A stretch of DNA of 39,156 bases from a virus (Duplodnaviria > Heunggongvirae > Uroviricota > Caudoviricetes): IMG/VR virus record IMGVR_UViG_2695420487_000015. One strand, written 5' to 3'. Position 1 is the stretch's first letter. Each line of letters begins with the position of its first letter. Below the pieces are notes generated by a model. It worked only from the letters and a program-made list of their open reading frames with translations, was not told the origin of the DNA and made no database searches. The position numbers were made by a program, and so were the translations under genes. Below, piece by piece: positions 25,790-31,810 of the stretch.

Positions 25790-28030
25790 TTATATTTTCA
25801 TTGCCAGTTCAGTTAAAACCGCAACGCGATTGAGGATTTCTGTAGCTTTGGTCTGATGTTCCTTAGCTCTATCTTGATGCGATGGCGCTGCGGAAAATAT
25901 TTCGCCTTTGGCCGTTCCGCGTAACCATTTACCATCAAAACAACTTTTACCACCGACCATCAGGTGCAGGGCTTCGCCCCGGCTGATAACGATGCCAGTT
26001 GTCAGATGTATCTCGTCGATAATTTTCGCTAAAACTGCGTTTTGCTCATTCGTTCCGTGAATGAATTTTCGCCGTATTTGTGGTTTTTGCTTCCTGAGTC
26101 GGTTTGTCAGCTCTCGTCTTTCACGTCGACTCAAGGGTTTTGATAAATCGAGTTCCGGTGGATCGCTTTCGCTTCCCGTATAGTTATTGACAGAACTCCG
26201 AGAGGGCGCAGGAGCGCCCTTAACGTCAACGGCCAAATCAACGGCACGCTTCGGCACAATTTTCCACTGCGTTAACCGGGTTAAAATCGGGGTGCCAGCG
26301 CCGACAGCAGAGTCGTAGACGCCACGAATGCAGACGGTTTCCTCACCATACTGGTTAAACTCGGGGCGCGGCTCATACAGCGTGCGCACCTGTAAATCAT
26401 CGCGACAGACAAACGGACCACCCTGCGCACTAACGTAACCAGCCCAGTCACCGGCGTCAGCGGCATCATGGACGGCAGCAAACTCAACGCTCAGACCGTG
26501 CGCGGTCTCGGTATCAGCGAGACGACGTAATTCACGGTAGACCGTCACCGGCGCACCGCCGATAAACTGGAACTGACGGATGTGCCAGCGCGCCGCCCAT
26601 GCTGATACGGCGGGGGCTGTCTCTTTCAGCAGCTCACCGCTTTCGTCATCGGTTTCACCATCAAGAGCATATCCGTCGATGTTTTTGGAAATGTATTTAG
26701 CGACATAGCCGGTAGCGCTGCCCTTTTCTGGGTCAATGGCTTCGGCATGAAAGCGCGCTTTTTTGGCTTTATCGCTTCTCAGTTCATGGCGGTCTTCCTC
26801 CCACGCATAATCACGGATGATGAGACGCACACTCTCGACGTCTTCCGGCAACATGAACATAAGCATGTGCCAGTGCGGCGTTCCGTCGTGATGAGGCTCA
26901 GCAACACGGATGCCGAAAATGCGGATTTCTTCCCGGTGTAGCTTGGCGCGTATGCGTGCCCAAAGACCGGTTAGATAGCTCTGCGTGTCCGAAGGGCTGG
27001 CACCGTTCCATTTGCTATTACGGTAGCCCGCTTTAGTCGTGGCGTGATATTTAGACGGTGCGGTTAAAGTGTAAAACTCACCGACATAACCGAGCTCATT
27101 GCAGATATTTTCAAACCCACGGATGCGGGTCATCAGCTCGCAGCGACGTATTGCAGGGTTAGCAACCGAACCATCGTATTTTTCAATCAGACTGATGCGG
27201 TTGCCGTCTTCGTCTTCGAGCTCCAGTCCTTTAAGAAATTCGCGCGTGCGGCGTTTCTGCTCGCGCCAGTCAGTCACGCAGTTTTTACTCGCGTAGGCGT
27301 GCTTTTTCTTACTGACGTTGCCAACAGCAATTTGTAGATGTTCGCGCCATGCAGACGCAATGCGACGTAAACGACCACGCCACCAAACCTCATTAAACAT
27401 GCGCATTACTGCCGGTGCGATTTCATCCTCACCAAAATATTTTTTAGTCACACGCTCCCATTTCGGCGGTGTAACGTTGAATTGCAGGGAAATAAAACCG
27501 GCGCGCATGTACCAGGCGTACAGCGTTTTGAGTTCGCTAAATCCGGTGTCATCAATATCAGCCAGTTCAGCACGAATGAAATTAGCGATATCAGCGGCAA
27601 GCAGGTCAATATCAGCGCGCGACATATCCGGGAGGCGGTTAAATCTGGCGACCATATTGACCATGCGTGACGCCAGATATTGCATAAGCTGGGTATCAAA
27701 ATGACCATCGAAAACAGAGGCTGATACATTGCTGTTGATGCCCGAGCACTCATATTTTTTTGCGACGAGTTCAAGACGTGGCAATGCCTTTTTGCAGAAG
27801 CTGATTAAAAAGGCATTGGCTCGTTGACTGCCCTGATTTTGCTCCAGTACCGCAGCGGTACGATAAACATCAAAGCGCACACACTCTGGCTGGAGAGAAA
27901 GCACCGTTCTCGCATGCAGCAAAGCCGCGAACATACGGTCGCGGCGATGCTGTTGGTCATAGGTAAGATATGGGCTGGCTAATGCCGACCGTGGGGCATT
28001 CCACGGAAACGCGTAAACTACACCCGTCAT
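25790..28030 (-). CDS. A: Replication initiation protein A (rolling-circle nickase)
   Basis: 746 aa; size and position match P2 gpA. Confidence 0.85.
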   Translation of the reverse strand: MTGVVYAFPWNAPRSALASPYLTYDQQHRRDRMFAALLHARTVLSLQPECVRFDVYRTAAVLEQNQGSQRANAFLISFCKKALPRLELVAKKYECSGINSNVSASVFDGHFDTQLMQYLASRMVNMVARFNRLPDMSRADIDLLAADIANFIRAELADIDDTGFSELKTLYAWYMRAGFISLQFNVTPPKWERVTKKYFGEDEIAPAVMRMFNEVWWRGRLRRIASAWREHLQIAVGNVSKKKHAYASKNCVTDWREQKRRTREFLKGLELEDEDGNRISLIEKYDGSVANPAIRRCELMTRIRGFENICNELGYVGEFYTLTAPSKYHATTKAGYRNSKWNGASPSDTQSYLTGLWARIRAKLHREEIRIFGIRVAEPHHDGTPHWHMLMFMLPEDVESVRLIIRDYAWEEDRHELRSDKAKKARFHAEAIDPEKGSATGYVAKYISKNIDGYALDGETDDESGELLKETAPAVSAWAARWHIRQFQFIGGAPVTVYRELRRLADTETAHGLSVEFAAVHDAADAGDWAGYVSAQGGPFVCRDDLQVRTLYEPRPEFNQYGEETVCIRGVYDSAVGAGTPILTRLTQWKIVPKRAVDLAVDVKGAPAPSRSSVNNYTGSESDPPELDLSKPLSRRERRELTNRLRKQKPQIRRKFIHGTNEQNAVLAKIIDEIHLTTGIVISRGEALHLMVGGKSCFDGKWLRGTAKGEIFSAAPSHQDRAKEHQTKATEILNRVAVLTELAMKI

Positions 28031-28043
28031 TTATTCTTCCGTG

Positions 28044-28352
28044 TCAGTATGATGCACATAATAGCTCCCTCAGCTTTGCTGCAAGAATTTCAATAGCGTA
28101 TTCATTAGGGAAGAGAGAGATTGAAAGAATTACCCAATTAGTTCCAAATTGGATGTAATCTCTTACTGGTAAAATATGAGTTATTTCGACCAGCACTACT
28201 TTTGAGGTGCATTCATTACGAAACTCATTCAATAAAAGGTAATCACCACAACGGAAATTACGGTCATCTACTCGCAGTTCTGCTTTTTTTGTTCCATCGC
28301 ATACTGCTTCGAAATGTTCAGTAGTTATCTTTAAACAATGAATAGTTCTCAT
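28044..28352 (-). CDS. DUF3850 / ASCH-like small protein
   Basis: Start at ATG 28352 with a GGAGG RBS; MRTIHCLKITTEHFEAVCDGTKKAELRVDDRNF resembles the DUF3850 N-terminus (recollection). Confidence 0.55.
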   Translation of the reverse strand: MRTIHCLKITTEHFEAVCDGTKKAELRVDDRNFRCGDYLLLNEFRNECTSKVVLVEITHILPVRDYIQFGTNWVILSISLFPNEYAIEILAAKLRELLCASY

Positions 28353-28576
28353 ACTGAACCTCCGATGTAATGTTTGCCTTTCAGTTCGGCAATCTCTTGA
28401 CATGTGACACAGCACTGCACACCTGGAATTGCGCGGCGACGGGCTGACGGGATTGGCAGATCGCAATCAATACAGTGAAGCCGAGAAATACCCGTTTTTT
28501 TATTGCGAGCATTACTGATATGCCGTTCGCGGTCTTCCTGCTCACGTTGTTGTGCAAAATCCATTGCGTCGGCCAT
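28349..28576 (-). CDS. TraR/DksA-family C4 zinc-finger protein
   Basis: 75 aa with C..C..(17)..C..C pattern (CIDCDLPI...CCVTCQ). Confidence 0.7.
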   Translation of the reverse strand: MADAMDFAQQREQEDRERHISNARNKKTGISRLHCIDCDLPIPSARRRAIPGVQCCVTCQEIAELKGKHYIGGSV

Positions 28577-30210: not shown

Positions 30211-30230
30211 AATACCCAAAGGAATAAATT

Positions 30231-30806
30231 TTGATACTTGATACTCAGGTGAATAACGACGAGTTACTGGATAGAATCTGTCAAGTATATGGTTTTACTC
30301 AAAAAATCCAGCTAGCCCGGCATTTCAATATTGCCGCCAGTTCCCTACAAAACCGCTACACGCGAGGCACTGTTTCTTATGATTTTGCCGTACAGTGCGC
30401 ATTAGAAACCGGGGCAAGCCTACTATGGCTTCTTACGGGGCAAGGCTCTCAATATGACGGCAAAAAGTCTCCAACGGATCCGAAAACGATAGACGCCTTC
30501 ACTCTTAGTGATGGAAAGCTCGAAGAAAATTCACCATTGAGTATTGATGCTGGTTTCTTTAGTAAGCAAATGTCAAAAGGTATTGCTGTTCGCGCCGATG
30601 GAAAGCTGCACTTTATAGAACAAGATGCCTCACTTTCTGATGGCCTTTGGTTGGTTGATATTGAGGGGGCTACCAGCATCAGAGAATTGACGCTCCTACC
30701 CGGTAAAAAGTTACACGTTGCTGGCGGCAAAGTACCGTTTGAGTGCGGGATAGATGAGATAAAAACGATTGGCCGTGTAGTGGGTGTATACAGCGAGGTT
30801 AATTGA
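30231..30806 (+). CDS. cI: 186 CI-like immunity repressor
   Basis: 191 aa, TTG start preceded by AAAGGAA; similarity to 186 CI as recalled; stop overlaps the int start. Confidence 0.75.
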   Translation: MILDTQVNNDELLDRICQVYGFTQKIQLARHFNIAASSLQNRYTRGTVSYDFAVQCALETGASLLWLLTGQGSQYDGKKSPTDPKTIDAFTLSDGKLEENSPLSIDAGFFSKQMSKGIAVRADGKLHFIEQDASLSDGLWLVDIEGATSIRELTLLPGKKLHVAGGKVPFECGIDEIKTIGRVVGVYSEVN

Positions 30807-31810
30807 TGACTGTCCGTAAAAATCCGGCTGGCGGTTGGATTTGTGAGCTCTACCCAAACGGTGCAAAAGGCAAACGTATCAGAAAGAAATTCGCTACTAA
30901 AGGCGAGGCGCTGGCGTTTGAGCAGTACACCGTTCAAAACCCGTGGCAGGAAGAAAAGGAAGACAGGCGCACGTTAAAAGAGTTGGTTGATTCATGGTAT
31001 AGCGCTCATGGCATTACACTGAAAGACGGCTTGAAACGCCAGCTAGCCATGCACCATGCTTTTGAGTGTATGGGCGAACCACTTACACGCGATTTCGATG
31101 CGCAGATGTTTTCCCGCTACCGAGAAAAACGGTTAAAAGGCGAGTACGCCCGTTCAAACAGAGTGAAAGAGGTATCGCCTCGCACGCTTAATCTTGAGCT
31201 GGCCTACTTCCGGGCTGTGTTCAATGAGCTAAACCGCCTCGGAGAATGGAAGGGTGAAAACCCACTGAAAAACATGCGCCCATTCCGCACAGAAGAAATG
31301 GAAATGGCCTGGCTGACTCACGACCAGATTTCGCTACTGCTCGGAGAGTGTAAACGGCATGACCACCCTGATTTAGAAACTGTGGTAAGAATTTGTCTCG
31401 CCACTGGCGCACGGTGGTCTGAGGCCGAGAACCTGAGAAAAAGCCAGCTTGCGAAATACAAAATCACATACACCAACACGAAAGGCAGAAAAAACCGCAC
31501 CGTTCCAATTAGCAAAGAGCTCTATGATTCTCTGCCTGATGATAAAAAAGGCAGGTTGTTTAGTGATTGTTATGGCGCGTTCCGGTCTGCGCTGGAAAGA
31601 ACAGGCATCGAATTACCGGCAGGGCAACTTACCCATGTTTTACGCCACACCTTCGCCAGTCACTTTATGATGAATGGTGGTAATATTCTGGTCTTGCAGC
31701 GCGTGCTCGGTCATACCGACATCAAAATGACAATGCGTTACGCACATTTCGCCCCAGACCATCTGGAGGATGCAGTAAGGCTAAACCCACTGAACAACAA
31801 CAGAGATTAG
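30806..31810 (+). CDS. int: Tyrosine integrase
   Basis: 334 aa from ATG 30806; C-terminal R..H..R..Y catalytic signature (HVLRHTFASH, MRYAHF). Confidence 0.9.
   Translation: MTVRKNPAGGWICELYPNGAKGKRIRKKFATKGEALAFEQYTVQNPWQEEKEDRRTLKELVDSWYSAHGITLKDGLKRQLAMHHAFECMGEPLTRDFDAQMFSRYREKRLKGEYARSNRVKEVSPRTLNLELAYFRAVFNELNRLGEWKGENPLKNMRPFRTEEMEMAWLTHDQISLLLGECKRHDHPDLETVVRICLATGARWSEAENLRKSQLAKYKITYTNTKGRKNRTVPISKELYDSLPDDKKGRLFSDCYGAFRSALERTGIELPAGQLTHVLRHTFASHFMMNGGNILVLQRVLGHTDIKMTMRYAHFAPDHLEDAVRLNPLNNNRD

Follow-up and report, generated by a model that had tools for sequence, protein, structure and literature searches.

The 39,156-nucleotide (nt) stretch of DNA analysed here (IMG/VR virus record IMGVR_UViG_2695420487_000015, referred to below in its whole length as the window) is a piece of the E. 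coli chromosome, with 2 mismatches in 15.6 kb to strain 10 (NZ_CP048330), and carries a ~31.9 kb prophage of the Peduoviridae that spans about 1677-33528 and occupies the integration place of phage 186 in the E. coli ileY gene. We consider it quite likely that this is an apparently complete 186-type temperate phage with the regulatory wiring of 186, in which a Tum antirepressor shortened to 69 amino acids is active on the resident CI repressor. The genes and regulatory sites described below were observed as sequence features and homologies, and from them we infer the activity of the short Tum on this CI.

For the interval 25790-31810, in the early region of the prophage, phage 186 was the top isolate found by megablast, with 89.9% identity across 83% of the interval. 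The early region is 86.5% identical to 186 at the nucleotide level over 94.5% of its length, and P2 aligns to 3% of it only; in 60-nt windows, identity to 186 was ~92-98% in the stretch from dhr to apl and once more across int. Genes follow one another as in 186; apl and cII belong to the rightward transcript and diverge from cI-int, with order and orientation unchanged:

25790-28030, minus strand: A, replication initiator (Pfam Phage_GPA, 1.9e-135; 93% amino acid identity to 186 A over 675 amino acids, 37% to P2 A)
28044-28352, minus strand: open reading frame (ORF) of the DUF3850 type
28349-28576, minus strand: DksA-like ORF
28576-28803, minus strand: DUF2732 ORF
28873-29073, minus strand: dhr (97% amino acid identity to 186 Dhr)
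29060-29287, minus strand: fil (96% amino acid identity to 186 Fil)
29295-29804, minus strand: cII (98.8% amino acid identity to 186 CII; PHROG 101)
29838-30098, minus strand: apl, Cox-like excisionase and repressor (100% amino acid identity to 186 Apl)
30231-30806, plus strand: cI repressor, of the 186 family but a different allele (Pfam PF07022 Phage_CI_repr and PF16452 Phage_CI_C)
30806-31810, plus strand: int (97.9% amino acid identity to 186 Int, 38% to P2 Int)

The original prediction held that cI, apl and cII follow the pattern of 186 and that the lysogeny module is unlike the C/cox module of P2. The second statement was borne out, as the module came out as 186-type in the BLAST comparison and none of P2 C, Cox, orf78, B, Old and Tin was detected in the window by tblastn at E<=0.01. 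The first holds for the gene order and for Apl and CII, whereas CI is just 66% identical to its 186 counterpart.

The SOS circuit of the prophage lies immediately beyond this region, and consists of a promoter and a short gene:

25692-25735, minus strand: p95-like SOS promoter (-35 TTCACA at 25730-25735; -10 TACTGT at 25706-25711; LexA box at 25692-25711)
25464-25673, minus strand: short tum, 69 codons with a GTG start, corresponding to the N-terminal antirepressor half of 186 Tum

The LexA box (TACTGTATGTTTATACAGTA, minus strand) deviates from the LexA consensus at 2/20 positions and, together with the -35 and -10 elements, is identical to the annotated p95 promoter of 186. A LexA box had been predicted for 25790-31810. 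One real box is indeed present, but it is found outside that interval, 79 bp past the end of A, and nothing LexA-like occurs within it, the best site in a relaxed scan (CTG-N10-CAG compared with the 20-nt consensus) carrying 9/20 mismatches. The core of the box, at 25694-25709, is the single CTGT-N8-ACAG in the whole window. As shuffled sequence contained at least one such match in 36/100 cases, a lone match is not rare by chance, and the box is credible because its position and sequence match those of 186 p95 rather than because of the rarity of the motif. One of the two differences from strain 10 falls in the spacer of p95, at position 25716, which is 5 nt upstream of the 20-mer of the LexA box; an A (plus strand) in the window stands against a G in strain 10, and 186 agrees with strain 10.

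Behind p95, a Shine-Dalgarno sequence and the GTG start codon are present, and the tum ORF stops at codon 70. The encoded protein is 82% identical to 186 Tum over residues 1-67 and 91% identical over the first 57. Homology to 186 fades ~30 nt past the stop codon, no tblastn match was found for the DinI-like half of Tum or for orf97, and an acyltransferase gene stands where 186 carries these two. The prophage therefore does not have the 146-amino-acid Tum fusion followed by orf97 that is seen in 186, and its layout resembles that of short or split Tum variants.

The presumed target of Tum, CI, matches the PDB entries 2FJR and 2FKD. No S24 peptidase domain was found in it by Pfam, and induction must therefore run via an antirepressor, as it does in 186. 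CI differs from 186 CI also in the recognition-helix region and is 96-97% identical in amino acid sequence to the CIs of Enterobacter prophages. These differences belong to a swapped segment, and the CI-related sites of the window are as follows:

30120-30780: swapped immunity cassette of ~660 bp, comprising the pR/pL operator region and most of cI (48-75% identity to 186)
29819-29835: putative CI operator of the FR type, ATTCACATAAAGTGAAT, located between apl and cII (matches 186 FR, 23404-23420, in site and position)
2063-2079 and 2095-2111: two CI operator-like sites upstream of gene B, in the pB region (ATTCACAAAAAGTGAAT and ATTCACCATTTGAGAAC, respectively)

In 60-nt windows, the cassette is 48-75% identical to 186 and its flanks are ~95% identical. 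The palindrome at pR reads CTAATACTCGATTGAGTATTAG in the window (30187-30208) and TATCTCTCAATTGGGAGATA in 186, and the cassette is 92-99% identical in the Enterobacter prophages L006 and L008, where the operators are nearly the same. Outside the cassette, the distal ATTCAC-N5-GTGAAT motif is unchanged relative to 186 at FR and pB, and the pB sites (2063-2111) keep the motif and spacing of the annotated 186 pB CI sites (20548-20596). Exchange of a repressor together with its operators is a familiar pattern among temperate phages, and the sequences compared here suggest that cI and the pR operators are probably a heteroimmune allele relative to 186, exchanged as one repressor-operator unit. Such a swap predicts that 186 and this phage would be heteroimmune while having one antirepressor type in common, and a pair of this kind would offer an easy way to find out which part of CI is recognized by Tum.

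Taken together with the wiring of 186, these elements suggest the following model. CI, which has no autocleavage domain, would repress pR, and also pB and pE through ATTCAC-N5-GTGAAT sites; Apl and CII would lie on the lytic transcript, and B would activate the late operons of the P2 family. p95, repressed by LexA and located downstream of A, would drive tum. Upon DNA damage, LexA would be cleaved and p95 would fire, the 69-amino-acid Tum would bind CI, and pR would be derepressed, so that Apl and Int could excise the prophage and A and B could lead into lytic growth.

This model depends on whether the N-terminal half of Tum can work by itself. In 186, induction by UV and mitomycin C has been shown in the literature to depend on LexA cleavage and on tum. 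Tum is an antirepressor fused to a DinI homologue, and in PSP3 and Fels-2 a stop codon separates one half from the other (PMC3121763); the upstream gene of PSP3 was reported to carry antirepressor activity (Lemire 2011, PMC3121763). The record of PSP3 shows, downstream of a LexA box, a 60-amino-acid tumA with the annotation "UV induction of prophage", and then a dinI-like tumB. PSP3 and Fels-2, with its split tum, are like the present prophage in having a LexA box and then a short antirepressor ORF (60 amino acids) downstream of A, but PSP3 keeps tumB directly downstream, whereas no DinI homologue is present here.

Short Tum proteins are found well beyond these phages. A search with the 69-amino-acid protein returned many clusters annotated as "Tum protein" with lengths of 63-78 amino acids, from Salmonella, Klebsiella, Enterobacter, Kluyvera and Edwardsiella, and PHROG families of 61-66 amino acids match the N-terminal half of Tum. 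In an alignment of 28 sequences, the short Tum kept all of the invariant positions (24/24), and the variable tails of the homologues start exactly where its own tail starts, the tum ORF ending at the domain boundary. Among 29 genomes, chosen as species representatives with a related CI, six had a Tum ORF of 60-73 amino acids with a LexA box upstream and no DinI domain nearby, and in 15 Tum was a fusion of 146/147 amino acids. Between the two E. coli sub-lineages examined, the short Tum protein shows no difference.

Several observations weigh against an active short Tum and an intact 186-type switch. RefSeq/PGAP annotates tum as a pseudogene ("DinI family protein, missing C-terminus"). The protein carries V42 where at least 90% of homologues have A (A42V), and its residues 58-69 form a divergent tail. 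PSP3 TumA is ~35% identical to this Tum over 31 amino acids, and the view that the N-terminal half alone is an antirepressor goes back to a personal communication on PSP3 (in PMC3121763) and a GenBank note. In the 186 record, C-terminal Tum products are annotated as modulators of induction, and their loss could change or weaken induction. The AlphaFold2 model of the 69-amino-acid Tum shows a helical hairpin (H7-22, H28-46) with a predicted local distance difference test score (pLDDT) of 65 and a predicted template modelling score (pTM) of 0.35; the fold was dropped as a domain argument for the short Tum because the confidence of the model was too low, and the PDB holds no Tum structure. Within cI, no FL-like site was detected with up to 2 mismatches allowed. 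Finally, a 186-type p95-tum of any kind was detected (at blastn sensitivity) in 42/5426 complete E. coli genomes, and the short-tum lineage makes up 37 of these 42 carriers with 98-100% identity (at least 80% coverage), a near-invariance compatible with vertical inheritance of an inactive element.

Some of these points would fit an SOS module that is broken, with tum a dead remnant, so that the prophage would keep a 186-type switch but behave in a P2-like manner, with no response to DNA damage and at most rare spontaneous induction. In favor of such a loss are A42V at a nearly invariant position, the pseudogene call, the nearly invariant tum locus in the 37 genomes, and the deletion of the DinI-like half and orf97 with low-GC cargo in their place. 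However, the break in tum falls at a natural domain boundary rather than at a random point, and neither the promoter and LexA box nor the Shine-Dalgarno sequence and start codon show any damage or any difference from 186. DinI-less short Tums behind LexA boxes recur across many genera, and the tumA of PSP3 is a separate 60-amino-acid gene credited with UV induction. We consider a broken module unlikely for these reasons. The pseudogene label is probably misleading and the short tum probably a complete antirepressor module, as judged by the homologues compared here, and we lean toward functional SOS induction of this prophage. With a LexA-controlled antirepressor circuit in place, the UV or mitomycin inducibility foreseen in the original prediction can reasonably be expected, but the missing DinI-like half of Tum makes that prediction a conditional one. 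DuoHS, a P2-like prophage of E. coli HS, is mitomycin-inducible through a LexA-controlled tum (PMC12055606), and given this precedent even positive induction here would be unsurprising. As short tum genes are labeled as "DinI family pseudogene", annotation pipelines may rate prophages of this kind as less SOS-inducible than they are; by its share of carriers (37/42), the short-tum lineage is the main form of the 186-type SOS circuit in sequenced E. coli.

An active short Tum would also have to act on an allele of CI that differs from that of 186. In the prophage of Enterobacter chuandaensis (L006), CI is 97% identical to the CI of the window, and the N-terminus of Tum is the same as that of 186 in 57/57 amino acids. 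The same antirepressor sequence hence occurs in natural combination with either CI allele. The 186 CI and the window-type CI are 69% identical in the N-terminal part, 40% in the middle and 89% in the C-terminal part. Across 22 loci, the identity of the Tum N-terminus correlated with the identity of CI domains at a rho of 0.18-0.37, a weak correlation that is confounded by linkage and was taken only as want of allele tracking. Judging by this pairing, Tum seems not to rely on those parts of CI that are specific to an allele. That the N-terminal module of Tum is a generic antirepressor, directed at the conserved C-terminal part of 186-family CI proteins and not specific to a CI allele, is a tentative proposal that we regard as rather doubtful. 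If true, one SOS-induced Tum, even the DinI-less 69-amino-acid form, could cross-induce heteroimmune 186-like prophages residing in one cell, as the Gifsy antirepressors have been described to do.

The borders of the prophage were set by its attachment sites, which duplicate the 3' part of a tRNA gene:

1598-1676, plus strand: ileY, tRNA-Ile2 with anticodon CAT (ARAGORN and Rfam tRNA), at the end of the prophage adjoining gene B
33412-33577, plus strand: Int arm-type sites (33412-33433) and attR core (33529-33577), the latter a duplicated 3' part of ileY

A direct repeat of 49 nt (D2) occurs at 1628-1676 and 33529-33577, with 48/49 bases the same (98%). The tRNA is complete at 1598-1673, and the left att copy is its 3' part; ARAGORN labels it Met(CAT), because tRNA-Ile2 has a CAU anticodon. 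The att core shows no differences from the attP core of 186, which the 186 record annotates as common to the 3' end of ileY, and arm-type sites of Int (YAYCGCCAYTY) flank both att cores on both sides. From the att repeats and the arm sites it follows that the prophage spans about 1677-33528, and all elements of the 186 integration module, namely a 186-type Int, the ileY 3' end and arm-type sites, are found. An Rfam scan of the whole window at the gathering threshold gave nothing beyond the tRNA. To the right of attR, the host flank (34325-39156) comprises remnants of ypjC-like pseudogenes and the first part of the autotransporter gene ypjA/ehaD, along with imperfect internal direct repeats (D1 and D3 families), which is the usual E. 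coli context of ileY; the other of the two differences between the window and strain 10, at 37819, falls in ypjA.

Within these borders, low-GC cargo replaces 186 orf69, the spacer between S and V, and the DinI half of tum with orf97:

23953-25170, minus strand: acyltransferase_3 protein, O-acetylase-like, GC content 0.36 (Pfam PF01757, 3.9e-25; PHROG 3333 O-acetyltransferase)
31821-33284, minus strand: low-GC cargo ORF of 487 amino acids, between int and attR, in place of 186 orf69
12699-13412, plus strand: member of the 8xMP octameric membrane protein family, GC content 0.38 (PF24838, 3.6e-36), in the S/V spacer
13681-14769, minus strand: DUF4238-like protein of 362 amino acids, GC content 0.38 (borderline, 27.7 bits against a cut-off of 27), in the S/V spacer

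A PADLOC search with six cargo or odd proteins gave no matches, and NCBIfam gave nothing informative for them. The acyltransferase gene sits in the cos-adjacent hotspot that Rousset et al. (PMC9122126) described, and comes with a promoter-like site of the extended -10 kind (25297-25269) and with a strong terminator (23855-23832). The stretch from the tum stop codon to the gene showed no terminator, and read-through from p95 into it is therefore possible; judging by this arrangement, p95 might put the O-acetyltransferase under SOS control. The position of the cargo in the S/V spacer is that of orf30 in P2. A DUF4238 protein was reportedly among the defence candidates from P2-like hotspots.

The 487-amino-acid ORF had no match in Pfam, PADLOC or NCBIfam. 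Its family comprises ~84 clusters from Gammaproteobacteria and Bacteroidota and has invariant residues (D152, E157, P183-D184 and E197-x-K199) in an arrangement like a PD-(D/E)xK motif. The AlphaFold2 model of the protein is confident (pLDDT 89.7). A Foldseek search of this model against the PDB gave no match at E<=0.001, but only weak local matches to PD-(D/E)xK nucleases such as Hjc, HindIII, HincII and I-Ssp6803I. The gene also stands beside int in 186-like prophages of Salmonella and near a prophage integrase in Vibrio fluvialis. The protein is a candidate single-gene anti-phage nuclease.

Cargo of this extent raises the possibility of a defective, domesticated prophage that, regardless of how its switch works, is unable to make phage and is kept for its O-acetyltransferase, putative nuclease, DUF4238 and 8xMP genes. 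Four low-GC insertions and the near identity of the copies would agree with this, as would the fact that no more than 37-42 complete E. coli genomes, out of 5426, have the prophage, but it is normal for active P2-like phages to carry cargo at these hotspots (PMC9122126), and no frameshift or truncated essential gene was found. The late ORFs are all of the expected length, and A, B, int, apl, cos and the two att sites are likewise intact. The sequence bears no mark of a defective prophage; domestication appears improbable, and it is from this intactness that we infer a viable prophage.

The original prediction had further described the late genes as near-colinear with those of P2 and the prophage as a mosaic of P2-like morphogenesis genes and a 186-like lysogeny module. 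The late region is composed of:

2089-23485: late block from D through Q (tail, lysis and head), with intact ORFs colinear with P2 and 186, broken by cargo at 12699-14769
1831-2049, minus strand: late activator B, homologue of P2 Ogr (86% amino acid identity to 186 B, 65% to P2 Ogr)
23662-23680, minus strand: cos site, GGCGTGGCGGGGATAGCAT, with one mismatch to the 186 cohesive end and conserved flanks

The late blocks typical of the Peduoviridae are all present (Q-P, O-N-M-L-X-lysis-R-S, V-W-J-I-H-G and FI-FII-E-T-U-D, plus an activator of the Ogr/B type), and per-gene tblastn confirmed that they are colinear with P2. The conserved late genes are 51-83% identical in amino acid sequence to each of P2 and 186; H and G, the variable tail-fibre genes, reach no more than 35-52%. 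Mean amino acid identity over 20 shared late proteins was ~70.3% to 186 and ~71.5% to P2, U, W, X and E being somewhat nearer P2 and S, V and B nearer 186. No tblastn match was found for P2 lysA, fun(Z), orf30, K and Y. The lysis cassette (16201-16915, minus strand) encodes a PF00959 phage lysozyme (ORF of up to 204 amino acids) and a 73-amino-acid ORF, and tblastn showed no similarity in it to P2 Y, K and LysA or to the 186 holin and P; the LysB/LysC (spanin) genes are conserved.

The colinearity with P2 does not make the prophage a mosaic of the two phages. At the nucleotide level, the late block from B to Q (1831-23485) is 73.9% identical to 186 over 77% of its length and 74.5% identical to P2 over 75%, so that it is equidistant from both, and the layout is the canonical architecture of 186. 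P2-colinear late genes with a 186-type switch were described as the property of a group in 2009 (PMC2771037). Since the layout is already known as such, we read it as the normal one of the 186 group and not as a P2 x 186 hybrid, the late block apparently representing a third lineage. A genuine recent hybrid, with morphogenesis genes of P2 proper joined by recombination to a 186 lysogeny module, could claim the P2-like late gene order, the four genes somewhat nearer P2 and the cargo at the orf30 position, but it is extremely improbable given late identities far under the ~95% of most of the early region to 186, S, V and B nearer 186, the failure to find P2 lysA, fun(Z), orf30, old and tin, and the same colinear late map in 186 itself. 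The segment B-att-int...A-tum resembles 186 far more than the late block does. Recombination can be seen at a finer scale, in this 186-near segment, in the cI-pR cassette and in the low-GC cargo replacements.

With phage 186 (Eganvirus ev186; NC_001317 / U32222), the prophage has in common the order B-att-int-cI-apl-cII-fil-dhr-A-p95-tum, the ileY core, the Int arm sites, the LexA box and p95 hexamers, the pB and FR CI sites and the P2-colinear late map. Unlike 186, it has a CI of 66% identity, another pR palindrome, no FL site that could be found and a tum without the DinI-like half; its DUF3850 gene, acyltransferase and 487-amino-acid ORF are additional, orf97, orf69, orf81, DUF5405 and orf84 are absent, the late genes are ~74% identical in nucleotide sequence, and holin and endolysin are unrelated. 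Coverage multiplied by identity in a blastn comparison of the whole prophage to 186 came to ~0.56, an approximation to, and not an official, VIRIDIC value, for which the thresholds are ~95% for species and ~70% for genus. By this estimate, the prophage is not of the species ev186, and it probably lies outside the 70% genus threshold for Eganvirus. Its significance is mostly one of annotation, as a new species-level relative of 186 with the textbook architecture of the group.

P2 (Peduovirus P2; NC_001895) resembles the prophage in its colinear late genes (51-82% amino acid identity) and in where its cargo hotspots map, namely in the S/V spacer (orf30) and next to cos (old/tin). It differs in the genes already listed as not found in the window (C, Cox, B, orf78, Old, Tin, Fun(Z) and LysA), in Int (38%) and A (37%), and in that P2 itself has no LexA-controlled antirepressor. 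The 186-like prophages of Enterobacter (E. chuandaensis NZ_QZCS01000009, L006) are similar in the early region (85-99% nucleotide identity), the pR operators and cI (97% amino acid identity), but have a full-length Tum of 146 amino acids with the DinI half and reside in another host genus.

Two further observations concern genes related to those of 186. Directly upstream of A, the DUF3850/ASCH-like gene (28044-28352, minus strand) stands in place of 186 orf81 (exonuclease-like), DUF5405 and orf84 (PAPS-reductase-like), none of which had a counterpart in the window by tblastn. P2 has its own DUF3850 gene, orf91, downstream of A, and the DUF3850 protein of the window gave no tblastn match to it at E<=0.01. 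In E. coli QEC11-421 (NZ_CP048821; L005), one of the 42 p95-tum carriers outside the short-tum lineage, a decayed 186-like prophage has an int broken by ISEc12 and truncated late genes. Its tum is still of full length, and its cos-adjacent hotspot is filled by a reverse-transcriptase (retron-like) cargo.

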